Shown: in pieces, positions 5,362 through 41,502 of the stretch | How positions within the stretch are numbered: the first letter of the stretch is position 1 | Layout: each line of letters starts with the position of its first letter | Source of the DNA: Escherichia coli | Lineage (GTDB): Bacteria > Pseudomonadota > Gammaproteobacteria > Enterobacterales > Enterobacteriaceae | Assembly (NCBI RefSeq): GCF_003018115.1 | Contig: NZ_CP027457.1 | Length of the DNA stretch: 64,000 bases | Reading direction: 5' to 3' (one strand) | Program-made: the position numbers and the translations under genes | Notes under the pieces: model-generated | Told to the model about the DNA's origin: nothing | Database searches by the model: none | Seen by the model: only the letters and a program-made list of their open reading frames with translations

Positions 5362-5437
5362 TGGTGGGTGATGACGGGATCGAACCGCCGACCCCCTCCT
5401 TGTAAGGGAGGTGCTCTCCCAGCTGAGCTAATCACCC
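5362..5437 (-). tRNA. valU: tRNA-Val (UAC), second identical copy
   Basis: Identical 76-nt sequence 44 bp upstream (in operon sense) of the first Val gene. Confidence 0.95.
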
Positions 5438-5454
5438 CCGCTGTGTGGAGTCGC

Positions 5455-5482
5455 ATTATAGGGAGAGTTCAAAATGAGTCAA
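5455..5482 (-). promoter_or_regulatory. sigma70 promoter of the Val-Val-Lys tRNA operon
   Basis: Minus strand reads TTGACT, 16-nt spacer, TATAAT just upstream of the first tRNA-Val. Confidence 0.5.
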
Positions 5483-5695
5483 CGCATTTTCTAAAGAAAT
5501 TGTTCGTTCGTCGTAAATTTAAGCAAGATGATCGCAAAACAGACCGTGTTGCGCAATTTGTCAACGAAAACAATAATGCGTAAGGTTGCAACCCGAACTA
5601 CATTGAGGAATCAGGCGGGAGTGATAGAATATCGCCCACTCAATTTTTCCAGGATTTGCCGGTTGTCGGCATCTTTCTAAACGTAAGGCCATTTC

Positions 5696-7111: not shown

Positions 7112-7127
7112 TTAGCGTGTAAAAAGA

Positions 7128-7162
7128 TAAACGGCAGGAGATAATATCCTGCCGTTTTTTAT
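7128..7162. terminator. intrinsic terminator between convergent gltX and yfeD
   Basis: acggcaggagataatatcctgccgtttttt hairpin plus T-run. Confidence 0.6.
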
Positions 7163-7555
7163 TTATGCTGATTCGTCAATATCGAGACGGGCGAGGAAAT
7201 TGCGAATTCCTTCACGTGACAAAAATTGCGCGACTTTTTCCTGCTCAATGTCTGTCATATTATCTATCGCGTTGATGATTTGTCGATACGCCGGGGCGCG
7301 TGCTCCAGGAGCGTATTCAGCAATTCTCTCTTCAGCTTCCATCAACATTGGTGTGTTATGGAACGCAGGCGTGTTCTGAATAAACTCGCAAACTTGCGTA
7401 TCGACCAGAATAAGTCTGGCACGACCGCCTTTCACGCCGGGAAATTTTTCCGTTTTCCAGCCTTTTTCTCTGATCCAACGGTTAACAGTTTGTTTAGCCA
7501 CACCGAGGCATTCAGCCAGTTCTTCGGTGGTCATTTTATTGCGTAATCTTTTCAT
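7163..7555 (-). CDS. yfeD: putative DNA-binding protein (YfeC/YfeD family)
   Basis: 130 aa, HTH-like N-terminus, paralogue of the adjacent gene. Confidence 0.85.
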   Translation of the reverse strand: MKRLRNKMTTEELAECLGVAKQTVNRWIREKGWKTEKFPGVKGGRARLILVDTQVCEFIQNTPAFHNTPMLMEAEERIAEYAPGARAPAYRQIINAIDNMTDIEQEKVAQFLSREGIRNFLARLDIDESA

Positions 7556-7556
7556 A

Positions 7557-7901
7557 TTATTTGCTATCGCGAATCCCTAAGCGTTGTAACAATCCGATAA
7601 TCCCTTCCCGCAGAAGCAAGGATGTAAACTGTTTTTGTTCAACTGGCGTCATCTCTTTCGCCAGTGTCACCAGCAATACTTCAAGCGGCGCATCACCAGA
7701 AAGGGCAAGCGCTTCTCCCTGACCTTCTGGACGTTCAGCATTACGAATATATTCACGAACCTGTTCATTGACGTGAACCAGTCGGGCTTTGCCACCCTGG
7801 ACGCCTGGTTTTGGTGACGTCGTCCAGCCTTCCTTGCGTACCCATTTATTAATGGTCTGGCGGCTATAGCCGGTCAGTCTGGCAAGTTCATCTGGCGTCA
7901 T
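7557..7901 (-). CDS. yfeC: putative DNA-binding protein (YfeC/YfeD family)
   Basis: 114 aa from MTPDELARL; ORF-track start at 7916 adds 5 codons. Confidence 0.85.
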   Translation of the reverse strand: MTPDELARLTGYSRQTINKWVRKEGWTTSPKPGVQGGKARLVHVNEQVREYIRNAERPEGQGEALALSGDAPLEVLLVTLAKEMTPVEQKQFTSLLLREGIIGLLQRLGIRDSK

Positions 7902-8075
7902 CCTCTCCTTGAACATAACAATTCCCTGAGTGTATGTGGGTCTATTAGTAGTTCATTTTATAGCACCACTTTACAGGAAACCGTGACATGAATAACTACT
8001 GAATGCGAGCGGTTTTCCAAAATTGTTCATTTGCCTGATTTTTCAGCGATTGAAACTACACGCTGCAATTTGCCG

Positions 8076-8104
8076 TTGACACATTCGGGCGGAATTCATA
8101 TGAT
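8076..8104 (+). promoter_or_regulatory. sigma70 promoter of the tRNA-Ala operon with GC-rich discriminator
   Basis: TTGACA, 17-nt spacer, TATGAT, then gccgcccg, about 30 nt upstream of the first tRNA-Ala. Confidence 0.55.
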
Positions 8105-8136
8105 GCCGCCCGTCAACTCGACAAGCTTTACGTGAC

Positions 8137-8212
<76 letters not shown>

Positions 8213-8251
8213 AATTTTGCACCCAGCAAATTTGGTACGTAAACGCATCGT

Positions 8252-8327
<76 letters not shown>

Positions 8328-8534
8328 AATTTCCAACCCTCGCTGCAAAGCGGGGGTTTTTTGTCTCTGCTTTTTGCCGCTTTTGTAATACAGTCTACGT
8401 CCGGGTTAGCGCCGCCTGGTGAAAGCATCATTGGATGAAAAATCGGCAACAGGCTGGCCCTTGTTTGCTTCGCGATGCGAATAAACTTATTATTTGTGTG
8501 CCTGAAAACCCCGATCAGTGAGAGTAGTGTACTC

Positions 8535-10724: not shown

Positions 10725-10730
10725 CAGGCG

Positions 10731-10764
10731 TAAAAAAGCCGGGGAATGATCCCCGGCTTTTTTA
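10731..10764. terminator. bidirectional intrinsic terminator between pdeA and nupC
   Basis: aaaaaagccggggaatgatccccggctttttt. Confidence 0.6.
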
Positions 10765-10773
10765 TGTATGGTT

Positions 10774-11976
10774 TTACAGCACCAGTGCTGCGATTGACGC
10801 AGACAGCACACTCACCAGGGTAGAGCCGTAAACCAGTTTCAGACCGAAGCGAGAAACCACGTTACCTTGCTCTTCATTCAGGCCTTTAACTGCACCTGCG
10901 ATAATCCCGATTGAAGAGAAGTTAGCGAAGGAAACCAGGAACACAGAGATGATGCCTTCAGCACGCGGAGAGAGCGTGGAAGCAATTTTCTGCAGATCCA
11001 TCATCGCAACGAACTCGTTGGAAACCAGTTTGGTCGCCATGATACTGCCCACTTGCAGTGCTTCACTGGAAGGAACACCCATCACCCATGCAATCGGATA
11101 GAAGATGTAGCCCAGAATGCCCTGGAAGGAGATGCTGTAGCCAAACCAGCCAGTCACGGTGGCAAACAGTGCGTTCAGCGCGGCGATCAGGGCGATAAAG
11201 CCGATCAGCATCGCGGCAACGATAATGGCAACTTTGAAACCTGCCAGAATGTATTCACCCAGCATTTCGAAGAAGCTCTGACCTTCGTGCAGGTTGGACA
11301 TCTGAATGTTTTCTTCACTGGCATCAACACGGTAAGGGTTGATCAGCGACAGCACGATAAAGGTGCTGAACATGTTCAATACCAGCGCAGCAACGACGTA
11401 TTTCGGTTCCAGCATGGTCATGTATGCACCAACGATGGACATCGACACGGTGGACATTGCCGTGGCAGCCATGGTGTACATACGATTACGGGAGATTTTG
11501 CCGAGGATATCTTTATAGGCAATAAAGTTTTCAGACTGACCCAGAATCAGGGAGCTGACGGCGTTAAAGGATTCCAGTTTGCCCATGCCGTTGACTTTGG
11601 AGAGCAGGAAACCAATTGCGCGGATGATCACCGGCAACACGCGAATGTGCTGGAGAATACCGATCAGTGCAGAGATAAAGACGATTGGGCACAGCACTTT
11701 CAGGAAGAAGAATGCCAGGCCTTGATCATTCATGCTACCAAAGACGAAGTTAGTCCCTTCGTTGGCAAATCCGAGCAGTTTTTCGAACATTTCGGAGAAG
11801 CCTTTCACGAAGCCTAAACCAACGTCGGAGTTCAGGAAGAACCACGCCAGTAACACTTCGATAACAAGCAGTTGAATAACATAACGGATACGAATTTTTT
11901 TGCGGTCGCTGCTTACCAGCAGTGCGAGAATCGCAACAACGGCAAGTGCCAGTACAAAATGAAGGACGCGGTCCAT
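10774..11976 (-). CDS. nupC: nucleoside:H+ symporter (CNT family)
   Basis: 400 aa from [11 protein letters not shown]; ORF-track start at 12015 adds 13 codons. Confidence 0.95.
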
Positions 11977-12240
11977 ATTTGCTCCAAATATGAGGCAGGT
12001 TAAATTTCCGTGCACATTCTATGTAACATGGTTAAGGAAAACGAGATCTGACACACACTATAATGACGTCCTGTGACAAGCTTCAAAAATAGTGATCTGT
12101 CATACATTTCTGCTATGTTGTGTATGGAAGCTGAAAGTTATGTAAATGTGCTAACATTAAACATAACCATAACATTCAAGTCATCAATCTTTTCGTAGTC
12201 ATAATCCTGGTCTATCAAAGAAATCACCACAACCCATTCA

Positions 12241-12262
12241 AATGAATTTGATAATCATTCTC
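12241..12262. promoter_or_regulatory. Fur box in the mntH promoter
   Basis: aatgaatttgataatcattctc resembles the GATAATGATAATCATTATC consensus. Confidence 0.5.
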
Positions 12263-12277
12263 GTTTGGCATAGCATG

Positions 12278-12299
12278 AAACATAGCAAAGGCTATGTTT
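12278..12299. promoter_or_regulatory. MntR operator (inverted repeat) in the mntH promoter
   Basis: aaacatagcaaaggctatgttt, a perfect 9-bp inverted repeat about 15 bp upstream of the mntH start. Confidence 0.6.
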
Positions 12300-12302
12300 T
12301 AG

Positions 12303-13550
<1,248 letters not shown>

Positions 13551-13577
13551 TTGAATGAGCGTCGCATCTGGCACTAT

Positions 13578-13667
<90 letters not shown>

Positions 13668-13690
13668 TTGTGCTCCATTGGCAAATGTGT

Positions 13691-14017
13691 TTAATGGCGG
13701 TGCCCATGTCCGCGGCCTTTTCCGCGATGATCGTCACGATCGCGCCAGCCTTCACGATAGCCACGCTCATACGCTTTACGCTTATCCCAGCCACGGTGGT
13801 AGCCATTATCATGACGCCACCAGCGGTTTTTACGCCATTCATAATTGCGATGCCAGTAATCACGATCTCGCCAGTGACCACCGTCCCAGTAATTACCGTA
13901 ATGATCGCGATCGCCAATTTGTAATTTGATTGATGGCAGTAGGGTGATTTCACCTGCGTTTGCTGCAAGCGGGGTAAATGCCATCAGGGCGGCCGCCAGA
14001 AACAGTGACCTGAACAT
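13691..14017 (-). CDS. ypeC: small periplasmic protein with Arg/His/Trp-rich repeats (DUF2502-like)
   Basis: 108 aa, signal peptide ...PLAANA, repetitive RDxxW/HR-rich C-terminus. Confidence 0.85.
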
Positions 14018-14131
14018 TGTTATTCTCCTTCACGATCGAAGCCGTCAGCGGCCTGTTAACGCAATATTACGGGGAGGTAAAGCCCCGTATCATCGCCATA
14101 ACTCTTAAATCATAAAGGAGAGCATTTTTTG

Positions 14132-15388
14132 CTAAACGTTATCGTGGGGTGGCTGTTGCTTCGGACGATTGACCATCATCATCGGCTTACCTGCTAATAA
14201 CAGCCATGCCGGAAGCATGACGATACAGAGCAGCGGTAGCAATGTGGTATTGGGTACAACGACTGCCGCCATAAAAAGACTTAACCAGCCATCGCGTGTT
14301 ACCACCAGCACGATGCCGAGAATAGCGCAGGAAACGGTTATTGCCGCTGGAACGGCGGGGACGTGCTCATGCAGCATCAACCCTAATGCCACGCCGACGA
14401 ACACTGCCGGGAAGATTCGCCCACCGCGAAAGCCACTGGCGGCAGCAACGACCAGGGCGGCAAGTTTAATTACCGCCAGCAAAAAGTAATCGCTGGTGCT
14501 GAAAGCCTGATTTGCCACCATCTGCTGCATCTCATCCAGTCCTTTAAACAGCGAAACCGGCCCACCAATAACCCCCAGAATACCGAGAATAAATCCGCCA
14601 ATACCCAGCACGAGCACCGGATTTTTCATTTGATGCATCATCGCGTGCAATCGTGGTAAGCACCATACGGCGACCATCCCTGCTGCGATGGCAATCGCCG
14701 CGACAATTGCACCGCTGAGAATATCGGTCATTTCCATCTGTCCGTAATGCGCAATGGGCAGTGAAAAATGAGGATGGAAAAATAATCCGGTAGTAAGTGC
14801 ACCAGCTGCTGCCGCCATTAACGGCGCAAAAAGACGATCCCATAGCGGAACTTCACTACTGCCATTTAAGGTTTGCGAAAATATCAACGCCGCCGCAACA
14901 GGTGTACCAAACAGCGCGCCGATGGTTCCGGCAGAGGCTAAAATAGTCCACTCCATTCGGTTGACGCGCGGTAACAGACGAGCGCCAATGGCAACCGCAA
15001 GGGCGATATTGACGGTCATGATCGGATGTTCCGGCCCCAGGCTGACGCCGCCAGCAAGACCGAGAATTAATGCTACGATAAGTCCAGGTAGCGCAGAGGG
15101 CGGAACCGGTGCGCCGATCAGCGGTTCACTGGCGGGGTCTGGTCCGGCATGACCCTGGCTGAAACGGATAACCAACCCCACCGCAATACCCGTTAGCGTT
15201 AATACACCGATGATCCAGAGGGGTGAATCCTGGGCTATCCCCAGAGTTCCCGGCAGTCGTTGCCAGAGCAAATTCTGTAATACCGAGGCGATTTTCATCA
15301 CCACAATCAGAATAAGACTGGACGCAATCCCAATTGCCACGGCGGGGAGCGATAATAACAACATGGTTCTGGCTCGCGGATGGAGCAT
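14132..15388 (-). CDS. yfeO: ClC-family ion channel/transporter homologue
   Basis: 418 aa polytopic membrane protein with GxGxPxG-like ClC motifs. Confidence 0.88.
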
Positions 15389-15591
15389 GTTCTATTCCTT
15401 ATGCGGGGTCAGATACTTAGTTTGCCCAGCTTGCAAAAAGGCATCGCTGCAATTGGTGCTGAAACGATAAAGTAATTGTGTGACCCAGATCGATATTTAC
15501 AGGGAGCCTGCCTTTCCGGCGTTGTTGTTATGCCCCCAGGTATTTACAGTGTGAGAAAGAATTATTTTGACTTTAGCGGAGCAGTTGAAGA

Positions 15592-16557
15592 ATGACAAAG
15601 TATGCATTAGTCGGTGATGTGGGCGGCACCAACGCACGTCTTGCTCTGTGTGATATTGCCAGTGGTGAAATCTCGCAGGCTAAGACCTATTCAGGGCTTG
15701 ATTACCCCAGCCTCGAAGCGGTCATTCGCGTTTATCTTGAAGAACATAAGGTCGAGGTGAAAGACGGCTGTATTGCCATCGCTTGCCCGATTACCGGAGA
15801 CTGGGTGGCAATGACCAACCATACCTGGGCGTTCTCAATTGCCGAAATGAAAAAGAATCTCGGTTTTAGCCATCTGGAAATTATTAACGATTTTACCGCT
15901 GTATCGATGGCGATCCCGATGCTGAAAAAAGAGCATCTGATTCAGTTTGGTGGCGCAGAACCGGTAGAAGGTAAGCCTATTGCGGTTTACGGTGCCGGAA
16001 CGGGGCTTGGGGTTGCGCATCTGGTCCATGTCGATAAGCGTTGGGTAAGCTTGCCAGGCGAAGGCGGTCACGTTGATTTTGCGCCGAATAGTGAAGAAGA
16101 GGCCATTATCCTCGAAATATTGCGTGCGGAAATTGGCCATGTTTCGGCGGAACGCGTGCTTTCTGGCCCTGGGCTGGTGAATTTGTATCGCGCAATTGTG
16201 AAAGCTGACAACCGCCTGCCAGAAAATCTCAAGCCAAAAGATATTACCGAACGCGCGCTGGCTGACAGCTGCACCGATTGCCGCCGTGCGTTGTCGCTGT
16301 TTTGCGTCATTATGGGCCGTTTTGGCGGCAATCTGGCGCTCAATCTCGGGACATTTGGCGGCGTGTTTATTGCGGGCGGTATCGTGCCGCGCTTCCTTGA
16401 GTTCTTCAAAGCCTCTGGTTTCCGTGCCGCATTTGAAGATAAAGGGCGCTTTAAAGAATATGTCCATGATATTCCGGTGTATCTCATCGTCCATGACAAT
16501 CCGGGTCTTCTCGGTTCCGGTGCACATTTACGCCAGACCTTAGGTCACATTCTGTAA
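15592..16557 (+). CDS. glk: glucokinase
   Basis: 321 aa, ROK/glucokinase N-terminus [14 protein letters not shown]. Confidence 0.97.
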
Positions 16558-16775
16558 ATCCTTCCTGTTATATCGGGAGGTAACTCTCCCGATAATCTTT
16601 TAAATCATACAGTTAATTCAATTTTTCTTTGTGTCCCCTCACAAGGCCGACCTGCGTCACACTTCCGTACAGCGGGATTAATTCTCCAGTAAATGCATTA
16701 TTTGTCTGGTAACGGCGATTTGTTTTGCACGTTCATAATTTCACTCGTCAACTATCACTGAACGAGGAATTAACG

Positions 16776-17102
16776 ATGAGTAAGAAACTGATTGCCTTAT
16801 GTGCCTGCCCGATGGGCCTGGCTCACACCTTTATGGCCGCTCAGGCGCTGGAAGAAGCAGCGGTAGAAGCCGGTTATGAAGTGAAAATTGAAACCCAGGG
16901 CGCGGACGGTATCCAGAATCGCCTGACGGCGCAGGATATCGCCGAAGCGACCATCATCATCCACTCCGTGGCAGTAACCCCGGAAGATAACGAACGTTTC
17001 GAATCACGCGATGTTTATGAAATCACTTTGCAGGACGCAATTAAAAACGCTGCGGGCATCATCAAAGAAATCGAAGAGATGATTGCCTCTGAACAACAGT
17101 AA
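16776..17102 (+). CDS. fryB: PTS fructose-like EIIB component
   Basis: 108 aa from MSKKLIALCACPMG (active-site Cys motif); ORF-track start at 16725 is an upstream extension. Confidence 0.9.
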   Translation: MSKKLIALCACPMGLAHTFMAAQALEEAAVEAGYEVKIETQGADGIQNRLTAQDIAEATIIIHSVAVTPEDNERFESRDVYEITLQDAIKNAAGIIKEIEEMIASEQQ

Positions 17103-17123
17103 TATTCGACAGGGATAATTGTT

Positions 17124-18371
17124 ATGGCCATTAAAAAACGCAGTGCAACCGTTGTGCCTGGCGCATCCGGTGCGGCAGCGGCAGTTAAGAATCCGCAGGC
17201 CTCTAAAAGCAGCTTCTGGGGTGAACTCCCGCAGCATGTGATGTCAGGGATTTCACGCATGGTGCCGACCTTAATTATGGGCGGTGTGATCCTCGCTTTC
17301 AGCCAGTTGATTGCTTATAGCTGGCTTAAAATTCCTGCTGATATCGGCATCATGGATGCTCTTAATAGCGGGAAATTCTCCGGTTTCGACCTCTCCTTAC
17401 TGAAATTTGCCTGGTTGTCGCAGTCCTTCGGCGGCGTGTTGTTTGGTTTTGCCATTCCGATGTTTGCTGCTTTTGTGGCGAACTCTATCGGTGGCAAACT
17501 GGCGTTTCCGGCTGGTTTTATCGGCGGCTTGATGTCTACCCAGCCGACGCAACTGCTGAACTTCGATCCCAGCACTATGCAATGGGCGACCTCTTCGCCG
17601 GTGCCGTCCACCTTCATTGGTGCGCTGATTATTTCTATCGTCGCGGGTTACCTTGTGAAGTGGATGAACCAGAAAATCCAGTTACCGGATTTCCTGTTAG
17701 CGTTCAAAACCACATTTTTGCTCCCGATTCTTTCCGCCATTTTTGTCATGCTGGCGATGTACTACGTCATCACCCCCTTTGGTGGCTGGATCAACGGCGG
17801 TATCCGTACTGTGCTGACTGCCGCAGGTGAGAAGGGCGCGCTGATGTACGCAATGGGGATCGCCGCGGCGACAGCAATCGACCTTGGTGGCCCGATCAAC
17901 AAAGCCGCAGGTTTTGTTGCCTTCAGCTTTACCACTGACCACGTATTACCGGTCACCGCTCGTTCTATCGCTATCGTTATTCCGCCGATTGGTCTGGGGC
18001 TGGCGACCATTATCGACCGTCGTTTAACCGGCAAACGCCTGTTCAACGCTCAACTTTATCCGCAGGGTAAGACCGCCATGTTCCTGGCGTTTATGGGGAT
18101 CAGTGAGGGTGCGATTCCGTTTGCACTGGAAAGCCCCATCACCGCCATTCCGTCGTATATGGTCGGCGCGATTGTCGGCTCAACCGCCGCTGTCTGGCTG
18201 GGCGCAGTGCAATGGTTCCCGGAATCCGCTATCTGGGCATGGCCGCTGGTCACTAACCTCGGCGTCTACATGGCGGGGATCGCGCTGGGGGCAGTCATAA
18301 CTGCGCTGATGGTGGTGTTCCTGCGTCTGATGATGTTCCGTAAAGGCAAATTGTTAATCGATAGCCTGTAA
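17124..18371 (+). CDS. fryC: PTS fructose-like EIIC component
   Basis: 415 aa polytopic membrane protein directly after fryB. Confidence 0.9.
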
Positions 18372-18385
18372 GAAGGAAAATCCAG

Positions 18386-19471
18386 ATGACATTACTCGCT
18401 TCGCTGCGCGACTGGCTTAAGGCGCAACAACTGGATGCGGTGCTTCTCTCCTCACGGCAGAACAAACAGCCGCATCTGGGGATCTCCACCGGATCAGGCT
18501 ATGTGCTGATTAGCCGTGAAAGTGCGCACATTCTGGTGGACTCGCGCTATTACGCGGATGTAGAAGCCCGCACTCAGGGCTACCAGTTACATTTGCTTGA
18601 TGCGACGCACACGCTTGCAACCATCGTCAATAAAATCATTGCCGATGAGCATCTGCAAACGCTCGGTTTTGAAGGCCAGCAGGTGAGTTGGGAAACCGCG
18701 CACCGCTGGCAGTCTGAACTCAATGCGAAACTGGTTAGCGCCACGCCGGATGTGCTGCGGCAAATCAAAACGCCAGAGGAGGTGGAGAAAATCCGCCTTG
18801 CCTGTGGGATTGCCGATCGCGGTGCAGAGCATATTCGCCGCTTTATTCAGGCGGGGATGAGCGAGCGCGAGATAGCCGCTGAACTGGAGTGGTTTATGCG
18901 CCAGCAGGGCGCAGAAAAAGCCTCTTTTGACACCATTGTTGCCAGTGGCTGGCGTGGGGCGCTGCCGCACGGCAAAGCCAGCGACAAGATTGTTGCAGCG
19001 GGCGAGTTTGTCACTCTCGATTTCGGTGCGCTCTATCAGGGCTACTGCTCTGATATGACGCGCACCTTGCTGGTGAATGGCGAAGGGGTGAGCGCCGAAT
19101 CTCATCCGCTGTTTAACGTCTATCAGATTGTTTTGCAGGCACAGCTCGCAGCAATCTCTGCAATTCGCCCCGGCGTGCGCTGCCAGCAGGTTGACGACGC
19201 CGCGCGTCGGGTGATTACCGAGGCAGGATTTGGCGACTATTTTGGTCACAACACCGGTCATGCTATTGGCATTGAAGTACACGAAGATCCGCGCTTTTCA
19301 CCGCGGGATACCACGACGCTACAGCCAGGCATGTTACTGACCGTGGAGCCGGGGATTTATTTGCCAGGGCAAGGGGGCGTGCGCATCGAGGATGTTGTGC
19401 TGGTTACCCCGCAAGGCGCAGAAGTGCTCTACGCCATGCCGAAAACAGTGTTGCTCACGGGAGAGGCATAA
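18386..19471 (+). CDS. ypdF: Xaa-Pro aminopeptidase (M24 family)
   Basis: 361 aa with metal-ligand motifs ([14 protein letters not shown]); lies inside the fry operon. Confidence 0.9.
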
Positions 19472-29969: not shown

Positions 29970-30045
29970 TGGGTCAGGATGGCTCATTTGGGCAGGTGTT
30001 CACATCAGCATCAGACATGATTGTTCACCTGCCATGTGACAGACG

Positions 30046-30321
30046 CTATCGCACAGGATGAATAAGATAATTCGCCTTTGTCGGATAAGTAGGCGTGATT
30101 TCTTCTGTGAGGTTTAATGGTGGCGCATCTTCTCTCATCTTAAACAAAATCGCCTGTGATGGCTGAAGTTTTGTAGAGTGTGTGGTTGTCATCGCTGATG
30201 TTTTTTCAGTCTCTTTATAGCTCCTCTCACTTACACCACCAGAAATGGAAAATGCAAAAACATTGCATGCCATAATAGAGACCAATAAAAATAAGCTGAA
30301 AAGTATTAAGTTTACTTTCAT
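30046..30321 (-). CDS. ypdI: small putative lipoprotein
   Basis: 91 aa; signal peptide with lipobox-like ...IMAC. Confidence 0.85.
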   Translation of the reverse strand: MKVNLILFSLFLLVSIMACNVFAFSISGGVSERSYKETEKTSAMTTTHSTKLQPSQAILFKMREDAPPLNLTEEITPTYPTKANYLIHPVR

Positions 30322-30463
30322 AGAAAGTTATCCTGAAAATGGTTCACTGAGAACCTACGATGTTATGGCTGTATTTACATATAATTAATCAATATTTACA
30401 TCGATATAATAAATGACATCTCTTTGTGGTACATAAGAATAGTTCTCTGCGACAGGAAGCAGA

Positions 30464-30481
30464 TTCCTACAATTGTAAGAC
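30464..30481. promoter_or_regulatory. EvgA box upstream of yfdX
   Basis: ttcctacaattgtaagac fits the 18-bp inverted-repeat EvgA consensus TTCYTACA-N2-TGTARGAA. Confidence 0.5.
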
Positions 30482-30616
30482 TAAAATACTTCTTGCGATA
30501 ATAACTACAACTGTAAGATAACCCTTTCAAAATGACCGTTGCTCTCTGATTTCTCATTTCATGCTCACCCAATATGATGGCGGCGTTTTCTAAAACTGTT
30601 AAAGAATGAGGTAAGT

Positions 30617-31249
30617 ATGAAACGTTTAATTATGGCTACGATGGTCACAGCAATTCTGGCATCTTCAACTGTATGGGCTGCTGATAATGCACCGGTAGCG
30701 GCACAACAGCAAACTCAGCAAGTTCAGCAAACCCAGAAAACGGCAGCAGCAGAGCGTATCTCTGAACAAGGTTTATATGCGATGCGTGACGTGCAGGTAG
30801 CGCGCCTGGCTCTGTTTCATGGCGATCCGGAAAAGGCAAAAGAACTGACCAATGAAGCTTCAGCTTTGTTGTCAGATGACAGTACCGAATGGGCAAAGTT
30901 CGCTAAGCCAGGTAAAAAGACCAATCTCAATGATGACCAATATATTGTCATTAATGCATCTGTCGGAATTTCTGAGAGTTATGTAGCGACACCCGAAAAA
31001 GAAGCCGCGATAAAAATTGCCAATGAAAAAATGGCGAAAGGGGATAAAAAGGGCGCAATGGAAGAGCTTCGCCTGGCCGGAGTTGGTGTAATGGAAAACC
31101 AATATCTGATGCCGCTTAAACAGACTCGTAATGCACTTGCTGATGCGCAGAAACTGCTTGATAAAAAGCAATACTACGAGGCAAACCTGGCGCTTAAAGG
31201 TGCGGAAGATGGAATCATCGTCGATAGCGAAGCACTGTTTGTGAACTAA
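30617..31249 (+). CDS. yfdX: periplasmic YfdX-family protein (EvgA-induced)
   Basis: 210 aa with signal peptide, Ala/Lys/Glu-rich. Confidence 0.9.
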
Positions 31250-31492
31250 TGCTGACAGGCAGTATATTGAGGTAAAGGATTTAACTCCCTCCAGCCGACA
31301 ATTTTTTATGACCACAATACGACAGGTTGTGGTCATAAAATTATTTGGCGCTCGCGGTGCTATAAACTCGCATTTTATCTTCCTCAAAGTAAACCGTAAT
31401 AATCCCGTGTCATCACAAATCATTTATTATGTTATATTTTATGGTACGCTTTAAAAAGCGTAATCATACCCTTACTTGTAAATCACCGGCGC

Positions 31493-31510
31493 TTCTTACA
31501 GTTGTAAGAA
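31493..31510. promoter_or_regulatory. EvgA box, perfect palindrome, upstream of frc
   Basis: ttcttacagttgtaagaa is exactly TTCTTACA-GT-TGTAAGAA. Confidence 0.55.
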
Positions 31511-31760
31511 TAACATCACAAATGTCGCGACTCTCTCTGATTACCACGAACCAATATTTATCATATTCTTCTTTTCGTCCTCACTACTTACCATGCAGAA
31601 AGGAATTGGAAGTAGCGATGAAATGATTTTCAGCACTTGATACAGGAATGTGAAAATATCGAGTGCAGCTACGACGATATTTTGCGGATTATTTATAGAG
31701 GCGTTATGCCTTAAATAAACGCTAAATTAACACATATTTAATTAACTAATAGGTATTGCT

Positions 31761-33011
31761 ATGTCAACTCCACTTCAAGGAATTAAAGTTCTCGATTTCA
31801 CCGGTGTGCAATCTGGCCCATCTTGTACTCAAATGCTGGCCTGGTTTGGCGCTGACGTTATTAAAATTGAACGTCCCGGCGTTGGTGACGTAACGCGTCA
31901 CCAGCTGCGAGATATTCCTGATATCGATGCGCTTTACTTCACCATGCTTAACAGTAACAAACGTTCTATTGAGTTAAATACCAAAACAGCGGAAGGCAAA
32001 GAGGTAATGGAAAAGCTGATCCGCGAAGCTGATATCTTAGTCGAGAACTTTCATCCAGGGGCCATTGATCACATGGGCTTCACCTGGGAGCATATTCAAG
32101 AAATCAATCCACGTCTGATTTTTGGTTCGATCAAAGGGTTTGATGAGTGTTCGCCTTATGTGAATGTAAAAGCCTATGAAAACGTTGCTCAGGCAGCGGG
32201 TGGCGCGGCATCCACTACGGGTTTTTGGGATGGTCCGCCGCTGGTAAGCGCTGCAGCGTTGGGTGACAGCAACACCGGAATGCATTTGCTGATCGGTTTA
32301 CTTGCTGCTTTGCTGCATCGCGAAAAAACGGGGCGTGGGCAACGAGTCACCATGTCAATGCAGGATGCCGTATTGAACCTTTGCCGCGTGAAATTACGTG
32401 ACCAGCAGCGTCTCGATAAATTGGGTTATCTGGAAGAATACCCGCAGTATCCGAATGGTACATTTGGTGATGCAGTTCCCCGCGGTGGTAATGCAGGTGG
32501 TGGCGGTCAGCCTGGCTGGATCCTGAAATGTAAAGGCTGGGAAACCGATCCTAACGCCTATATTTATTTCACTATTCAGGAGCAAAACTGGGAAAACACC
32601 TGTAAAGCCATCGGCAAACCAGAATGGATTACCGATCCGGCATACAGTACAGCCCATGCACGACAGCCACATATTTTCGATATTTTTGCTGAAATCGAAA
32701 AATACACTGTCACTATTGATAAACATGAAGCGGTGGCCTATTTGACTCAGTTTGATATTCCTTGTGCACCGGTTTTAAGTATGAAAGAAATTTCACTTGA
32801 TCCCTCTTTGCGCCAAAGTGGCAGTGTTGTTGAAGTGGAACAACCGTTGCGTGGAAAATATCTGACCGTTGGTTGTCCAATGAAATTCTCTGCCTTTACG
32901 CCGGATATTAAAGCTGCGCCGCTATTAGGTGAACATACCGCTGCTGTATTGCAGGAGCTGGGTTATAGCGACGATGAAATTGCTGCAATGAAGCAAAACC
33001 ACGCCATCTGA
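31761..33011 (+). CDS. frc: formyl-CoA:oxalate CoA-transferase
   Basis: 416 aa, family III CoA-transferase. Confidence 0.95.
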
Positions 33012-33064: not shown

Positions 33065-34759
33065 ATGTCAGATCAACTTCAAATGACAGATGGTATGCAT
33101 ATCATCGTTGAAGCATTAAAACAGAATAATATTGACACTATTTATGGTGTTGTAGGTATTCCTGTGACGGATATGGCACGCCATGCCCAGGCGGAAGGCA
33201 TTCGTTATATTGGTTTTCGTCATGAGCAGTCGGCAGGCTATGCCGCTGCGGCAAGCGGTTTTCTTACCCAAAAACCGGGGATCTGCCTGACAGTTTCTGC
33301 GCCAGGATTCCTCAATGGTTTGACCGCATTGGCCAACGCAACGGTAAATGGTTTTCCGATGATCATGATTAGCGGCTCCAGCGACCGCGCGATCGTCGAC
33401 CTACAGCAAGGTGATTATGAAGAGCTGGACCAAATGAATGCGGCAAAACCGTATGCCAAAGCAGCATTTCGCGTTAATCAGCCGCAGGATCTTGGCATTG
33501 CATTGGCACGCGCTATCCGGGTCTCCGTATCGGGTCGCCCTGGCGGAGTTTATCTTGATTTGCCAGCAAATGTCCTGGCCGCGACGATGGAAAAAGACGA
33601 AGCGTTAACCACGATTGTAAAAGTTGAAAATCCGTCGCCAGCATTATTGCCATGCCCGAAGTCAGTCGCTAGCGCAATTTCGCTTTTAGCAAAAGCTGAA
33701 CGACCATTAGTTATCCTTGGCAAAGGCGCGGCGTATTCACAAGCTGACGAACAGCTTCGTGAATTTATTGAAAGTGCCCAGATTCCATTCCTGCCAATGT
33801 CTATGGCGAAAGGGATCCTCGAAGATACGCATCCACTTTCTGCAGCAGCTGCGCGTTCGTTTGCCCTGGCAAATGCTGACGTTGTCATGCTTGTTGGTGC
33901 ACGACTGAATTGGTTACTGGCACACGGTAAAAAAGGATGGGCGGCAGATACACAGTTTATTCAACTGGATATTGAACCGCAGGAAATTGACAGCAACCGC
34001 CCTATTGCTGTGCCAGTCGTTGGCGATATTGCATCCAGTATGCAAGGTATGCTGGCAGAGCTGAAACAAAACACATTTACGACTCCACTGGTATGGCGCG
34101 ATATTTTAAATATCCACAAGCAGCAAAATGCACAAAAAATGCATGAAAAATTAAGTACAGATACCCAACCATTAAATTACTTTAATGCATTAAGTGCTGT
34201 GCGCGATGTATTGCGTGAGAACCAGGATATTTATTTAGTTAATGAAGGTGCAAATACCCTGGATAATGCACGAAATATTATTGATATGTATAAACCACGT
34301 CGTCGTCTGGATTGTGGTACCTGGGGTGTCATGGGCATCGGTATGGGCTATGCCATCGGTGCTAGCGTGACCTCTGGTTCTCCGGTTGTCGCCATTGAAG
34401 GTGATAGTGCTTTTGGTTTCAGTGGGATGGAGATTGAAACGATTTGTCGATATAACCTGCCGGTGACGATCGTTATTTTTAATAATGGCGGCATCTACAG
34501 AGGAGACGGTGTTGATCTCAGTGGCGCTGGTGCACCATCACCAACGGATCTGTTGCACCATGCAAGGTATGACAAATTAATGGATGCGTTTCGTGGCGTT
34601 GGCTATAACGTCACCACGACAGATGAACTTCGTCATGCTTTAACCACCGGTATTCAGTCGCGCAAACCGACCATTATTAATGTGGTCATCGACCCTGCAG
34701 CAGGAACTGAAAGTGGCCATATTACCAAACTTAACCCAAAACAAGTCGCTGGTAATTAA
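33065..34759 (+). CDS. oxc: oxalyl-CoA decarboxylase (ThDP-dependent)
   Basis: 564 aa; ThDP-binding motif GDSAFGFSGMEIETICRYNLPVTIVIFNNGG. Confidence 0.95.
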   Translation: MSDQLQMTDGMHIIVEALKQNNIDTIYGVVGIPVTDMARHAQAEGIRYIGFRHEQSAGYAAAASGFLTQKPGICLTVSAPGFLNGLTALANATVNGFPMIMISGSSDRAIVDLQQGDYEELDQMNAAKPYAKAAFRVNQPQDLGIALARAIRVSVSGRPGGVYLDLPANVLAATMEKDEALTTIVKVENPSPALLPCPKSVASAISLLAKAERPLVILGKGAAYSQADEQLREFIESAQIPFLPMSMAKGILEDTHPLSAAAARSFALANADVVMLVGARLNWLLAHGKKGWAADTQFIQLDIEPQEIDSNRPIAVPVVGDIASSMQGMLAELKQNTFTTPLVWRDILNIHKQQNAQKMHEKLSTDTQPLNYFNALSAVRDVLRENQDIYLVNEGANTLDNARNIIDMYKPRRRLDCGTWGVMGIGMGYAIGASVTSGSPVVAIEGDSAFGFSGMEIETICRYNLPVTIVIFNNGGIYRGDGVDLSGAGAPSPTDLLHHARYDKLMDAFRGVGYNVTTTDELRHALTTGIQSRKPTIINVVIDPAAGTESGHITKLNPKQVAGN

Positions 34760-34828: not shown

Positions 34829-35773
34829 ATGCTAACATTTTTTATTGGCGATTTATTGCCTATTATCGTAATCATGCTGTTGGGTTATTTTAGCGGCAGA
34901 CGAGAAACTTTTTCAGAAGATCAAGCCCGGGCATTTAATAAACTGGTATTAAACTACGCGCTTCCTGCAGCCCTATTTGTTTCTATTACCCGGGCAAACA
35001 GGGAAATGATTTTTGCGGACACTCGTCTGACCCTTGTATCACTCGTGGTTATTGTCGGATGTTTCTTTTTCTCCTGGTTCGGTTGCTACAAATTTTTTAA
35101 ACGTACTCATGCAGAAGCAGCTGTATGTGCATTAATTGCAGGTTCACCTACCATTGGATTCCTGGGGTTTGCAGTTCTCGATCCTATTTATGGTGATTCC
35201 GTATCAACAGGTTTAGTGGTAGCAATTATTTCTATTATTGTTAACGCAATTACTATTCCTATTGGTCTGTATTTGCTGAATCCTTCCTCAGGAGCGGATG
35301 GTAAGAAGAATAGTAATCTGAGCGCATTAATTTCTGCGGCAAAGGAGCCAGTTGTATGGGCACCTGTTCTGGCAACGATCCTGGTGTTGGTTGGGGTAAA
35401 AATTCCGGCAGCATGGGACCCAACCTTTAATCTGATTGCGAAGGCTAACTCAGGGGTAGCGGTATTCGCTGCGGGGTTGACTCTGGCTGCACATAAATTC
35501 GAGTTCAGTGCCGAAATTGCTTATAACACCTTCCTGAAGCTGATTCTGATGCCACTGGCACTGCTTCTCGTTGGTATGGCATGTCATTTGAACAGCGAAC
35601 ATCTGCAGATGATGGTACTGGCAGGCGCATTACCGCCGGCATTCTCCGGAATCATTATTGCCAGCCGGTTTAATGTCTACACCCGTACTGGTACAGCGTC
35701 ATTGGCTGTGAGCGTACTGGGTTTTGTCGTCACGGCTCCCTTGTGGATTTATGTCAGTCGACTGGTTTCATAA
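34829..35773 (+). CDS. yfdV: AEC-family putative transporter
   Basis: 314 aa polytopic membrane protein inside the frc-oxc operon. Confidence 0.9.
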
Positions 35774-35846: not shown

Positions 35847-36992
35847 ATGACAAATAATGAAAGCAAAGGGCCGTTTGAAGGCTTATTAGTTATCGATATG
35901 ACACATGTCCTTAATGGACCTTTCGGAACTCAACTTCTTTGTAATATGGGCGCACGGGTAATTAAAGTTGAGCCGCCGGGCCATGGTGATGATACCCGCA
36001 CATTTGGTCCCTATGTGGATGGACAGTCACTCTATTACAGTTTTATTAATCATGGCAAAGAGAGTGTGGTTCTTGATTTAAAGAATGATCACGATAAAAG
36101 TATATTTATAAATATGCTTAAACAAGCTGATGTATTAGCTGAGAATTTTCGCCCAGGTACAATGGAAAAACTAGGGTTTTCATGGGAAAGGTTACAAGAA
36201 ATCAACCCGCGCCTCATATATGCTTCATCGTCAGGTTTCGGACATACCGGTCCGCTAAAAGATGCTCCTGCCTACGATACCATCATTCAGGCAATGAGCG
36301 GGATAATGATGGAAACAGGGTACCCTGATGCTCCGCCAGTGCGTGTTGGTACCTCTCTTGCGGATCTATGCGGCGGTGTTTATTTATTCAGCGGAATAGT
36401 GAGTGCACTTTATGGCCGCGAAAAGAGCCAAAGAGGGGCGCATGTCGATATAGCGATGTTTGATGCCACGCTGAGTTTTCTGGAGCATGGTCTGATGGCA
36501 TATATTGCGACAGGGAAGTCACCACAACGCCTGGGAAATCGCCATCCCTACATGGCACCTTTTGATGTTTTCGATACTCAGGATAAGCCGATTACGATTT
36601 GTTGTGGTAATGACAAGCTTTTTTCTGCGTTATGCCAGGCACTGGAGCTTACGGAACTGGTTAATGATCCCAGATTTAGCAGCAATATTTTACGCGTACA
36701 AAACCAGGCTATTCTTAAACAATATATTGAGCGGACGTTAAAAACGCAGGCAGCTGAAGTTTGGTTAGCCAAAATACATGAAGTCGGTGTGCCCGTAGCG
36801 CCGTTATTAAGTGTGGCTGAGGCCATTAATTTGCCACAAACTCAGGCGAGAAATATGTTGATTGAAGCCGGAGGAATAATGATGCCGGGTAATCCGATAA
36901 AAATCAGCGGCTGCGCGGACCCGCATGTTATGCCGGGAGCGGCAACGCTCGACCAGCATGGGGAACAAATTCGCCAGGAGTTCTCATCATAA
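35847..36992 (+). CDS. yfdE: acetyl-CoA:oxalate CoA-transferase (family III)
   Basis: 381 aa from MTNNESKGPFEGLLVIDMTH, paralogous to Frc; ORF-track start at 35808 is an upstream extension. Confidence 0.9.
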   Translation: MTNNESKGPFEGLLVIDMTHVLNGPFGTQLLCNMGARVIKVEPPGHGDDTRTFGPYVDGQSLYYSFINHGKESVVLDLKNDHDKSIFINMLKQADVLAENFRPGTMEKLGFSWERLQEINPRLIYASSSGFGHTGPLKDAPAYDTIIQAMSGIMMETGYPDAPPVRVGTSLADLCGGVYLFSGIVSALYGREKSQRGAHVDIAMFDATLSFLEHGLMAYIATGKSPQRLGNRHPYMAPFDVFDTQDKPITICCGNDKLFSALCQALELTELVNDPRFSSNILRVQNQAILKQYIERTLKTQAAEVWLAKIHEVGVPVAPLLSVAEAINLPQTQARNMLIEAGGIMMPGNPIKISGCADPHVMPGAATLDQHGEQIRQEFSS

Positions 36993-37047: not shown

Positions 37048-40000
37048 TTAGTTATTTTGTTGACAGAAAACAGCAATCTCCTGGTCCAGCTCTGCAATGT
37101 GTTCTTTTACAGAGTTCAGCAACTGAAGAATTTCAGGCTTACTGTCATCTGAAACAGGTGTTATTTCTAACTGATGGCTAATATTAATCAACTTTTGCAA
37201 ATTCAGGATGTTAGCCGCACCGTGGATGCGATGAATACACTGATGGAAAGTTCTATTATCGCCAGCTTCTAGTGCATGAAACGCAGCGGATAAATCTTTA
37301 TGTGTTTCATGCTGGAAAGTCATGAGAATCTCCTGCATCAGTTGTAGATCGTTCGCCGTATTATTTTTCAGGGCCTCGATATCAAGGTGGCGATACTGAG
37401 GTACAATATGCGCAACCTGGTGTAACTGACTTAAATGTGTTTTCAGTACATCCAGGGTCAACGGTTTGAACAAACATAAGTTCATGCCGCAATTTAACCC
37501 TTTTTCACGTTCGTTAGCCTGTGCGTTGGCTGTAAGCCCCCAGATGGGTAAGGACGAATTTTGCTCACGGAGTTTGCGAGTCAACTCAAAACCATCCATA
37601 TTCGGCATATTAACGTCAGTAATAAGCAGATCATAATGTTGCATACTGACTTTGTGTAGCGCTTGCACACCATCAGTGGCTTCGTCAACATCATATCCTA
37701 ATAGATTTAGCTGGCGTTTGAGTAATAGCCTGTTGGTCGGATGATCATCCGCGATTAATATGCTCAACTTTTCAGGTAGTGTGATAGGTTGTTCTGCTTT
37801 TGCCTCGACAGCCGCCACTTGTTGGGTAATTTCTACCGGGATTGTGATCGTAAATGTTGTTCCTATGCCTGGATGACTTTCTAATGACAAATCACCCTGC
37901 ATGTTTTTAATTAATTCTTTGCAGATCATTAAGCCTAAACCAGAACCTGTTTGCTGACGACCTGCACTTGTTTGGCTATAACGTTTAAACAGTTGTTGTT
38001 GTTCTTCCTGTGATAATCCACTTCCAGAATCCATAATCGTCATTTTGATTACAGCGTGGTTGTCATCAATGTGACCCAGGGAGGTCGTAATTTTTACTGC
38101 CCCCTCGGTGGTAAATTTGAGAGCATTACTCAGTAAATTTGATAAGACCTGCTTAAACGCCTGAGGGTCGATCTTAACTAGGTAATGTTCAGGAAACGTA
38201 CTGCTGCAACTTAATGCGATCGATTTGCTTGCAGCAATCGCACCGAAAGAGTGACAAGTGTTCTGGACTAAAGTAGGAATATCGACCCATTGTGGTTGAA
38301 GTTGATAGTTACCCGATTCAATTTTGTCGACATCAAGGATTTCACCAATTAAGCCGAGGAGTGATTGTCCGGTGGCGTAGGCAAGTGAAATCGCCTCCAC
38401 CCGTTGTTCCTTGCTAAGACCAGAACCCGACAGAAGTTCCAGGAAGCCCATAATAGAGCTTATTGGTGTTCTTATTTCGTGACTCATCGTTGCCAGAAAC
38501 TGACTTTTTGCTACGGTAGCCTTTATCGCTTTATTTTTTTCTACCTCGAGTGCATTAATTAGATCACGCGTTTCAGTAATATCTTGCCAACCACAAATAT
38601 ATACTGCATTGTCACTTGCAGGAAGATTGCATAATGTATGCCAGTGATTAATGCATCTTTTCTCGATGCCATTATCAATTTCAAATACCTGTGTGTATAT
38701 TGTTCGGTTTTCTTTCGTCTCTGCTGTGACTTCATGCGTATTAGAAAAAACATCTTTAAAGGGTGATTCACTGTTTTCTAATGGCAACATTGCATTTTTG
38801 TAGTAATCAGCAGTGAAATAATGTTCAAATGCACTATTGTGACTAATGACATTACCTTGCCAGTTTACAACATAAGTTGGATTCGGTAAGGAGTCCGAGA
38901 GCGCTTTCCGGAATGATATTTGGTTTTCTAAATCACCCTGAATGACTTTACGACGACGAACTGAGCGTAACAGGTAGAATCCCCATAAAAGGCTACTGCC
39001 AACTAATAAAACGGATAATGTCGTAACAATATAAAATTGCTCGCTATAGAGGTCCCATGTGTCAATGGTCACATTGGGCATTTTAATCCATTTTTCCGTC
39101 AGGCGCAGAACTTCGCTTGGGGGGATTGCATTCAGTGCTTTATTAATAATATCCTTAAGTTCCGGTTCTCCGCGAGGAAAAGCGAACGAAAGCGATGCAT
39201 TCGGAACGCCGGGAATAAGAAAATGATAAAGTTCATTAGGATAGTAATGGTCGATCATGTAACGCGAATTTAGCTGTGTCGCGACCAGAGCATCAAGTTC
39301 ACCTTCCTTGACCTTGTGAAATGCAGCGCTGGCGTTATCGACTTTTATCCACTCTACCTCCGGATACATCTCTTTTAATTGCGAATGCAGCTCATAATAA
39401 TATGGAATGGCAACTTTCATTCCTTTTTTTAATGTTTGTTCACTGTCAGGCGCTTTTTGCATGACAAAAACGTAAGGCGTTGTTATGAAGGCTTCAGCAA
39501 ATAAAACATTATTTTCTCTATCTTCACTATAAATAGCACCGGGTAATATATCCCATCCGCCGGGATTCAGCTGTGTTCCGGCATGGATATTGTGTGAAAC
39601 GGTGATCGGAGAAAAATTTAAACCTGTTTGCAAGGTAATAATATTAAGAATGTCCCCCATAACGCCCCGAACCGAGCCATTTTCATCCGTCATAGAATAG
39701 GGGGGCGAGTAAGGATTTTCCAGCACCTTTAAATCGGGATGCTGCTTAATCCACTGTTTTTCATGTTCAGTGAGTTCTAATGGCTTGTTCAGAAAGGCTA
39801 GGTTTCCTGTATCAAGCCAATTTTGTGATACTTCATAGCGAACTTCATTTGTTAAAGCATCAACAAATCGATTGAGTACTTCATTAAGAATGACAGATTC
39901 TTTTCTGGTTAAGAAGAAGTTATATTGACGCGGTGAGTTATAATATTTCACTACATTTAAGGAGTGAGTGAAATAGCGGGAAATCATACTGCTGGTAATG

Positions 40001-40641
40001 ATGTTACTACCAATAAAGTAATCATTCTGTCCGGCTGAGACGGATGCTAATGCCTGATATAAATTTGTAAAAGAGATAATTGTTGCTTTTGGAAATGATT
40101 GATGAATTATCTCGTCAGGGGGATAATTTGCTACTCGAGCAATATTTACTGGTTTTGATGAGGTAAGCGGTCGCATTGAATCGTGAAGGGTGGTGACCAG
40201 CGCCGGAAAGGTAATTATCAGTGGTTTGGTTGCAGCAATGTCATCATTAAGAGGCGGCGAAGCAACTAAATGTGATAACACTATATCGACTTCACCTTCT
40301 TCCAGCGCGTCCATTGCTTTTTGATGATCGGCGTATTCCCGGAGTGTTAATTTGATATTTAACGCTCTTTTTAAAAGATTTAAATAATCAGCATTAATAC
40401 CACGAACCCGTTGCTGCGAATCGGTATGCAACAACGTAGCCGTTTGGGACTTATGTACTGCAATCACAAGATTTTTTTTGCTCGCTAACCAACGTAATTC
40501 CTTGTTGCTCAGACGTAGTGGATCAAGTGTGACACGGTTGTTACTACTGATGCCACGATATTCGATGTAATCTTCGTCTGCGAAACTTATGGTCGACCAA
40601 AGACCACAACAGAGAAGAAAAATATAGGGTAAAAACTTCAT
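37048..40641 (-). CDS. evgS: hybrid sensor histidine kinase (periplasmic sensor, HisKA, HATPase, receiver, HPt)
   Basis: 1197 aa, BvgS-like architecture. Confidence 0.95.
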   Translation of the reverse strand: MKFLPYIFLLCCGLWSTISFADEDYIEYRGISSNNRVTLDPLRLSNKELRWLASKKNLVIAVHKSQTATLLHTDSQQRVRGINADYLNLLKRALNIKLTLREYADHQKAMDALEEGEVDIVLSHLVASPPLNDDIAATKPLIITFPALVTTLHDSMRPLTSSKPVNIARVANYPPDEIIHQSFPKATIISFTNLYQALASVSAGQNDYFIGSNIITSSMISRYFTHSLNVVKYYNSPRQYNFFLTRKESVILNEVLNRFVDALTNEVRYEVSQNWLDTGNLAFLNKPLELTEHEKQWIKQHPDLKVLENPYSPPYSMTDENGSVRGVMGDILNIITLQTGLNFSPITVSHNIHAGTQLNPGGWDILPGAIYSEDRENNVLFAEAFITTPYVFVMQKAPDSEQTLKKGMKVAIPYYYELHSQLKEMYPEVEWIKVDNASAAFHKVKEGELDALVATQLNSRYMIDHYYPNELYHFLIPGVPNASLSFAFPRGEPELKDIINKALNAIPPSEVLRLTEKWIKMPNVTIDTWDLYSEQFYIVTTLSVLLVGSSLLWGFYLLRSVRRRKVIQGDLENQISFRKALSDSLPNPTYVVNWQGNVISHNSAFEHYFTADYYKNAMLPLENSESPFKDVFSNTHEVTAETKENRTIYTQVFEIDNGIEKRCINHWHTLCNLPASDNAVYICGWQDITETRDLINALEVEKNKAIKATVAKSQFLATMSHEIRTPISSIMGFLELLSGSGLSKEQRVEAISLAYATGQSLLGLIGEILDVDKIESGNYQLQPQWVDIPTLVQNTCHSFGAIAASKSIALSCSSTFPEHYLVKIDPQAFKQVLSNLLSNALKFTTEGAVKITTSLGHIDDNHAVIKMTIMDSGSGLSQEEQQQLFKRYSQTSAGRQQTGSGLGLMICKELIKNMQGDLSLESHPGIGTTFTITIPVEITQQVAAVEAKAEQPITLPEKLSILIADDHPTNRLLLKRQLNLLGYDVDEATDGVQALHKVSMQHYDLLITDVNMPNMDGFELTRKLREQNSSLPIWGLTANAQANEREKGLNCGMNLCLFKPLTLDVLKTHLSQLHQVAHIVPQYRHLDIEALKNNTANDLQLMQEILMTFQHETHKDLSAAFHALEAGDNRTFHQCIHRIHGAANILNLQKLINISHQLEITPVSDDSKPEILQLLNSVKEHIAELDQEIAVFCQQNN

Positions 40642-40645: not shown

Positions 40646-41260
40646 TTAGCCGATTTTGTTACGTTGTGCGAATGTGTAAAGATCCATCAGTGATTTACAT
40701 TCTAATTTTTCCATCAGGCGACTTTTATAAGTGCTGACAGTTTTGTTGCTGATGAACATTTTTTCAGCAATGTCATTATTATCCTTGCCATCAAGAATAT
40801 AGCGCATGACACTAATTTCTTGTTTCGATAAGGAGTCGAGTTTTTGCTGGTCGGACGTTAAACTTCCAACAAACCGGTTGAGAGAGAAGGGGAAATAGCA
40901 GTAGCCATTTTTTGCAGCTTCAATAGCCGCAATGATATTGTTCATGCCTTCTTTTTTACTCACGAAACCATTAGCGCCAGCATCAGCACAATGTTTCCCG
41001 TAAAAATGGTCATTTTTAGCGGAAACGATAATAATAATTCCGCTATATTGACGCTTTCTCAGCGTTTCTAACACCTGGATACCGTTAACTCCGGGGATAT
41101 CGACATCAATGATGACGATATCAGGCTTAAGTGTTTCCACCCGCTGAACGGCACTTCCGCCTTCAGTCAACTCTGCTAAGATTTCAATATCGTTTTTGAT
41201 CAATAAATTACGAATTGCTGCGATAGCAAGAGGATGGTCATCAATAATTATTGCGTTCAT
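40646..41260 (-). CDS. evgA: NarL/FixJ-family response regulator
   Basis: 204 aa; receiver domain plus LuxR-type HTH. Confidence 0.95.
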   Translation of the reverse strand: MNAIIIDDHPLAIAAIRNLLIKNDIEILAELTEGGSAVQRVETLKPDIVIIDVDIPGVNGIQVLETLRKRQYSGIIIIVSAKNDHFYGKHCADAGANGFVSKKEGMNNIIAAIEAAKNGYCYFPFSLNRFVGSLTSDQQKLDSLSKQEISVMRYILDGKDNNDIAEKMFISNKTVSTYKSRLMEKLECKSLMDLYTFAQRNKIG

Positions 41261-41484: not shown

Positions 41485-41502
41485 ATCCTACAGGCGTAAG
41501 AA
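41485..41502. promoter_or_regulatory. EvgA box in the evgA-emrK divergent control region
   Basis: atcctacaggcgtaagaa is a near match to the EvgA inverted-repeat consensus. Confidence 0.45.

Follow-up and report, generated by a model that had tools for sequence, protein, structure and literature searches.

Are the genes frc, oxc, yfdV and yfdE of E. coli expressed by read-through from yfdX, or do they have an EvgA-dependent promoter of their own? Mild acid activates the sensor kinase EvgS, which phosphorylates EvgA. The first-pass annotation of the stretch of DNA analysed here (64,000 nt, called the window in the following) had placed one EvgA box upstream of yfdX and a second one deep in the yfdX-frc spacer, behind a terminator hairpin, and had proposed that the second box drives frc-oxc-yfdV-yfdE. 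After our analysis we regard it as highly probable that the locus contains two adjacent EvgA-activated transcription units, yfdX and frc-oxc-yfdV-yfdE. The genes of the second unit (oxalate/formyl-CoA acid tolerance) would respond directly to EvgS/EvgA, in parallel to yfdX.

EvgA sites before yfdX and before yfdW (frc) of E. coli K-12 were reportedly described by Masuda & Church in 2003 and by Itou, Eguchi & Utsumi in 2009. PMC3720670 states, citing Masuda & Church 2003, that repeats before yfdX and before yfdWUVE are bound by EvgA, and reports that yfdX and yfdWUVE are induced separately; binding of EvgA at the frc promoter is stated in PMC8147483. In a constitutive evgS mutant frc showed the highest fold increase (PMC4283999), and PyfdX is in use as a direct EvgA reporter (PMC5706723). 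The sites in K-12 are identical in sequence to those of the window (yfdX box at 2494538-2494555, frc box at 2493506-2493523) and lie in the same gene order; we found nothing substantially different. The box arrangement and a separate EvgA promoter for frc have been known in K-12 since 2003 and the current understanding is unchanged. Our additions are modest: a predicted frc start, a proximal yfdX box, a comparative footprint and a covarying pair in the hairpin. Among the useful outcomes is a specific predicted frc start to test (near 31577; K-12 ∼2493439).

The gene annotation was transferred from the RefSeq annotation of strain F9792, which is 100% identical to the window over positions 30300-31800 and differs at three positions in 23.5 kb; with few exceptions, the 5,426 complete E. 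coli genomes compared have 95-99% identity in the same region. On the plus strand follow yfdX (30617-31249; 210 aa, YfdX family PF10938), frc (31761-33011), oxc (33065-34759), yfdV (34829-35773) and yfdE (35847-36992). The cognate sensor kinase and response regulator are encoded in the same genome as the boxes, by evgS (37048-40641) and evgA (40646-41260), both on the minus strand; emrK starts at 41676, and ypdI (30046-30321, minus strand) lies on the other side of yfdX. This is the K-12 gene order emrKY-evgAS-yfdE-yfdV-oxc-frc-yfdX in reversed orientation. The yfdX-frc spacer has 36% GC versus 48% for the whole window and differs from K-12 by scattered SNPs, and yfdX is one Ala codon shorter than in K-12: a GCG codon is missing at 30740-30750, which gives a YfdX of 210 aa compared with 211 in K-12. 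The length of YfdX varies from 192 to 222 aa among homologues above 90% identity, and we suspect that the Gln/Ala-rich stretch behind the signal peptide, the site of the K-12 indel, is the length-variable part. An Rfam scan of 30000-32000 returned only two matches, both to eukaryotic families and at chance level. An open reading frame of 65 aa (31429-31626) was judged spurious, as it overlaps the frc box and part of it falls in sequence of low conservation.

We took the EvgA consensus to be TTCYTACANNTGTARGAA (TTCYTACA-N2-TGTARGAA) and afterwards checked it on K-12 promoters, where the same 18-bp motif was found upstream of safA, ydeP, yegR and emrK/evgA; a search of the full-text literature for an EvgA consensus gave nothing useful. 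With at most one mismatch the consensus occurs just twice in the 64 kb (0.00 expected from 100 shuffles): as the distal yfdX box TTCCTACAATTGTAAGAC at 30464-30481 with one mismatch and as the frc box TTCTTACAGTTGTAAGAA at 31493-31510 with none. Both boxes of the first-pass annotation were thus recovered at their positions, and its distance of about 250 bp to frc agrees with the 250 nt that we measured from the frc box to the ATG. Its description of the frc box as a perfect palindrome holds for the two 8-bp arms; the central GT is not self-complementary, and the site is palindromic at 16 of 18 positions in the window strain as in K-12. A divergent E. coli with GC in the centre carries a fully palindromic site. 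When up to three mismatches were allowed, four sites were found versus 0.54 expected, a number reached by none of the shuffles. The two extra sites are a weaker EvgA-like box upstream of yfdX (TAACTACAACTGTAAGAT, 30502-30519, three mismatches) and a box in the evgA-emrK intergenic region (ATCCTACAGGCGTAAGAA, 41485-41502, two mismatches). The proximal yfdX box is missing from the first-pass annotation. Among the boxes of frc, yfdX, safA, ydeP, yegR and emrK the frc box is the sole one with zero mismatches, and yfdX, unlike the other EvgA promoters compared, has two boxes, 38 bp apart.

Six EvgA promoters were aligned on their boxes (frc, yfdX box 2, safA, ydeP, yegR and emrK). All six carry a −10-like hexamer at an offset of 53/54 past the box, and the summed register score of 32.7 (null mean 18.5) was matched by none of 2000 random registers. 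This register predicts distances between transcription start site (TSS) and ATG of ∼178 nt for ydeP, 40-41 nt for yegR and 31 nt for yfdX. The published distances in Table S5 of PMC10469882 are 178 nt (RegulonDB v10.5) and 178 nt (EHEC Cappable-seq) for ydeP, 43 nt (RegulonDB v10.5) and 41 nt (EHEC Cappable-seq) for yegR and 31 nt (RegulonDB v10.5) for yfdX. The published starts of the three genes match the register, which places the box centre near −74.5. At frc the register points to a core promoter TTACCA-17-TATTCT on the plus strand, with a −35-like TTACCA at 31541-31546 and a predicted −10 hexamer TATTCT at 31564-31569; the box is separated from the −35 region by a conserved linker (31511-31546). 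Calibrated on the ydeP, yegR and yfdX starts, the geometry predicts transcription of frc from the G near 31577, with the box centred at −74.5/−75.5 and a leader of ∼184 nt (31577-31760); a leader of similar length is present at ydeP (178 nt). By our own count the frc core matches 8 of 12 consensus positions, and it was not listed by the promoter scan, whose threshold was 9 of 12. Such a weak core counts against our reading, yet it is what an activator-dependent promoter would be expected to have.

The yfdX core promoter TTCTCA-16-TATGAT was found by the promoter scan at 30551-30578 on the plus strand, and the RegulonDB v10.5 distance (PMC10469882 Table S5) places the TSS at 30586, 31 nt upstream of the ATG. 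Relative to this start the proximal box 30502-30519 is centred at about −75.5 and lies in the shared activation register; the strong distal box 30464-30481 is centred at about −113.5, 38 bp farther upstream. At yfdX it is thus the weaker of the two boxes, 30502-30519, that lies in register. We also considered a duplicated promoter module at frc and yfdX, with an in-register identity of 20/34, and dropped it: the similarity beyond the box is not significant, as 315 of 2000 shuffles scored as high. Two further starts are on record for yfdX. One, from EHEC Cappable-seq, lies 108 nt upstream of the ATG at window position 30509 (PMC10469882 Table S5) and fits a promoter-like TTGTAA-18-GATAAT whose −10 is preceded by TG (30473-30509). 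This promoter overlaps both yfdX EvgA boxes; EvgA binding might silence it while activating the downstream one. The other lies inside yfdX, ∼100 nt into the coding sequence (K-12 2494302, minus strand, window ∼30717; PMC7815308).

Conservation was examined within E. coli and in Yersinia. In nine E. coli genomes the arms of the frc box and the distal yfdX box are invariant, and the frc box varies in the central N2 alone. Of the 5,426 complete genomes, 5,406 contain the 60-mer that starts 6 nt before the frc box and runs to 36 nt past it; it is identical in 3,222 records, whereas a control 60-mer 90 bp upstream of it is identical in only 10 records, a contrast that is partly due to SNPs private to the lineage of the window. 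In Yersinia alsatica and related assemblies the genes yfdX-frc-oxc-yfdV-yfdE-evgS are arranged in this order as well, beside IS1 and integrase genes. The Yersinia YfdX is 84% identical to that of the window, and IS1 together with further transposase genes and integrase genes borders the module (1-18615 of locus L093; L094 and L095). The Yersinia copy suggests that the module moved horizontally together with its regulator.

Alignment of the window with the Yersinia copy gave 44% identity from the yfdX stop codon to the hairpin, 100% in the hairpin arms, 56% in the hairpin loop, 41% between hairpin and frc box, 83% in the frc box (TTCTTACACGCGTAAGAA in Yersinia), 89% in the 36 nt after it and 47% in the middle of the frc leader. 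The frc half-sites TTCTTACA and CGTAAGAA are retained, next to an upstream flank with 41% identity. The predicted frc −10 hexamer is kept at 5/6 positions (TATTCT to TATTAT) and matches the consensus better in Yersinia than in E. coli; it is the sole −10 candidate kept in Yersinia, the alternatives TATCAT and CATATT being destroyed there. At the level of the alignment this is a clean footprint of the hairpin, the frc box and the predicted core promoter. Upstream of yfdX, the surroundings of the proximal box are kept in Yersinia (the box itself has four mismatches there, as read from the alignment), and the distal box is absent; IS1 directly abuts the upstream side of yfdX. The proteins closest to Frc among the non-Escherichia matches listed in a scan of species representatives are those of Moellerella wisconsensis and Providencia stuartii (86-87% aa identity), and we found no EvgA box near frc in either species, so that the two were of no use for footprinting; EvgA control seems to go with the evgAS-linked form of the locus. 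In E. coli 1218KP (NZ_CM173878.1; 743-1557 of locus L091) IS1 and foreign genes replace yfdX and the spacer except for the last 57 bp, so frc of this strain is without the EvgA box and the predicted promoter.

Between yfdX and the frc box lies the hairpin that the first-pass annotation had called a strong terminator at about 31305-31340. It begins 55 nt past the yfdX stop codon on the plus strand, and its core (31308-31336) extends to a 15-bp stem with a 7-nt loop at 31304-31340, followed by the tail TTATTTGG. With a 5-bp outer helix added, the 66-nt segment 31290-31355 folds with −25.4 kcal/mol and z = −5.5. The hairpin is real in this respect; its terminating role is a reading of the sequence, and the T-tract is modest. 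A stable stem-loop right behind the stop codon, a T-rich tail and one covarying pair resemble a rho-independent terminator; in contrast to such terminators the stem is A/T-rich (4 of 15 pairs are G-C) and the tail, with 5 T of 8, is interrupted and not conserved in Yersinia, where CTCTCTGC (CTCTCTG) stands at the same place. The covarying pair was observed within E. coli: in CUVET21-1780, MS14384 and FDAARGOS_1287 the exchanges A31311G and T31333C occur together and turn an A-U into a G-C pair with the stem kept, which supports selection on the stem. The hairpin is likely a terminator or a 3′-end stabiliser of the yfdX mRNA. No 3′ end of yfdX is contained in the tables of PMC7815308, which were obtained under non-inducing conditions.

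The element ATGACCACAA-N9-TTGTGGTCAT might also be mainly something other than a terminator: a DNA-binding protein could use it as an operator, or it could act as a 3′ stem-loop in the stabilisation or processing of the yfdX mRNA. Each 10-nt arm has 100% identity in E. coli and Yersinia, and a comparison of these two shows no covariation, in flanks of 41-44% identity; the conserved arms could reflect a site at the DNA level. The low number of G-C pairs fits this reading, as does the downstream U-tract (5 U of 8, CUCUCUG in Yersinia); the arms and the U-tract weigh against termination in our preferred model. On the other side stand the paired exchange within E. coli that preserves the stem, the freely varying loop, the strongly non-random fold and the position shortly behind the stop codon, followed by TTATTTGG; no Rfam family or known operator matched. 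We consider such a function in place of termination unlikely, though clearly less so than the following alternatives for the frc box. If yfdX-frc-oxc-yfdV-yfdE formed a single operon, frc would be expressed by read-through, and 31493-31510 would bind EvgA without being part of a promoter, for instance as an anti-H-NS or reservoir site. The name 'yfdXWUVE operon' is still used in several papers, among them PMC3720670; acid induces yfdX, frc, oxc and yfdV together and to a similar extent (PMC10746267), and the weak U-tract, not conserved in Yersinia, also speaks for a single operon. Also in line with a single operon, and a point against our preferred reading, no frc TSS is listed in the TSS/3′-end tables of PMC7815308 or the Cappable-seq tables of PMC4782308, studies in which EvgS was not deliberately activated, nor in the RegulonDB/EHEC comparison table of PMC10469882, in which yfdX, ydeP and yegR appear; neither an frc TSS nor a yfdX 3′ end was found in PMC11092163. 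Against it, the register from box to −10 at frc equals that of five further EvgA promoters, of which three have TSSs that fit; Yersinia has kept the −10 and the 36-nt linker but not the surrounding spacer; and two publications report that yfdX and yfdWUVE are induced separately (PMC3720670) and that EvgA binds at the frc promoter (PMC8147483). We therefore hold a single operon to be quite improbable.

Shimada et al. 2014 (PMC3946193) reported binding of RpoD holoenzyme in the frc-yfdX spacer, with a 'constitutive' promoter, and flagged H-NS there. This promoter, TTTATA-18-AATAAT, maps to 31373-31402, ∼90 bp upstream of the frc box; its proposed position upstream of the box is a point against an EvgA-dependent start at 31577. 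In the window strain its −35 reads TTTATC, and conservation of this stretch in Yersinia is poor. The palindromic frc box could also drive an antisense transcript toward yfdX, instead of frc or besides it. The symmetry of the box, the location of the emrK/evgA box between divergent genes and a promoter-like TTTAAA-18-CATAAT on the minus strand (31455-31426) speak for this. However, the −10 of the latter lies, as read from the sequence, at an offset of 62 from the box and not at the shared 53/54, and the region upstream of the frc box is the least conserved of the spacer, with 41% identity to Yersinia and variation within E. coli. Antisense transcription from this box seems extremely improbable to us.

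The claim of an EvgA-dependent promoter for frc-oxc-yfdV-yfdE is thus supported by the published EvgA binding, the shared register and the conservation in Yersinia. In the arrangement with two transcription units that we prefer, a dimer of phosphorylated EvgA binds the 18-bp inverted repeats, as published, and, judging from the shared register, would act from about −74.5 to activate two weak sigma-70 promoters. At frc it would act from the box 31493-31510, ∼74-75 bp upstream of TTACCA-17-TATTCT, with a predicted start near 31577; at yfdX the weak box 30502-30519 would occupy the activating position relative to the TSS 30586, with the strong box 38 bp upstream of it. Further EvgA dimers could occupy the conserved 36 nt up to the −35 region, by analogy to BvgA. 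EvgA could also counter H-NS on the AT-rich spacer: its low GC content of 36% and the flag for H-NS make counter-silencing plausible as well. The stem-loop 31304-31340 would end or stabilise the yfdX transcript, which would make frc expression independent of read-through.

The EvgA promoters may share more than the box. Downstream of it CA (offsets 9-10), TC (26-27) and T (31) are invariant in all six promoters, with P values of 0.011 to 0.0004 when four promoters are counted as independent; at frc these positions are CA 31519-20, TC 31536-37 and T 31541. The 18-bp inverted repeat, the 53/54 offset of the −10 and the CA/TC/T positions of frc are shared by ydeP, safA, yegR and emrK. The invariant CA lies 20 bp and the invariant TC 42 bp from the first arm, and both line up with the same dinucleotides of the half-site TTCYTACA; around the TC element frc and yfdX have TCTGATT, whereas the other EvgA promoters have TCCTATT or TCTTATT. 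The Bordetella regulator BvgA, the homologue of EvgA, is a NarL/FixJ-type regulator like EvgA. According to Boucher & Stibitz it reportedly binds at the fha promoter to a high-affinity inverted repeat far upstream and to weaker half-sites in ∼21-bp steps toward the −35 region. The frc box, followed by CA 20 bp on and a TCYTA-like element 42 bp on, resembles this arrangement, a likeness that we treat as a lead. We tentatively propose, as a possibility that is rather doubtful at present, that EvgA promoters share a so far undescribed layout with a box at about −74.5, a CA element 20 bp on and a TCYTA-like half-site 42 bp on that overlaps the −35 region. Between E. coli and Yersinia the 36 nt behind the frc box are conserved to the same degree as the box. 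If so, activation would depend on a second factor or, as in the case of BvgA and fha, on an array of EvgA dimers, and not on a single dimer; the invariant positions hint that EvgA promoters may need more than the 18-bp box. Our literature search found no report of multi-dimer EvgA binding. Upstream of evgA itself, an RNA 3′ end of the class 'upstream ORF' is listed at about 41314 (K-12 2483701), 54 nt 5′ of the gene (PMC7815308), and the 9-codon evgL is annotated just upstream of evgA in K-12; together they hint at leader-peptide control of evgAS.
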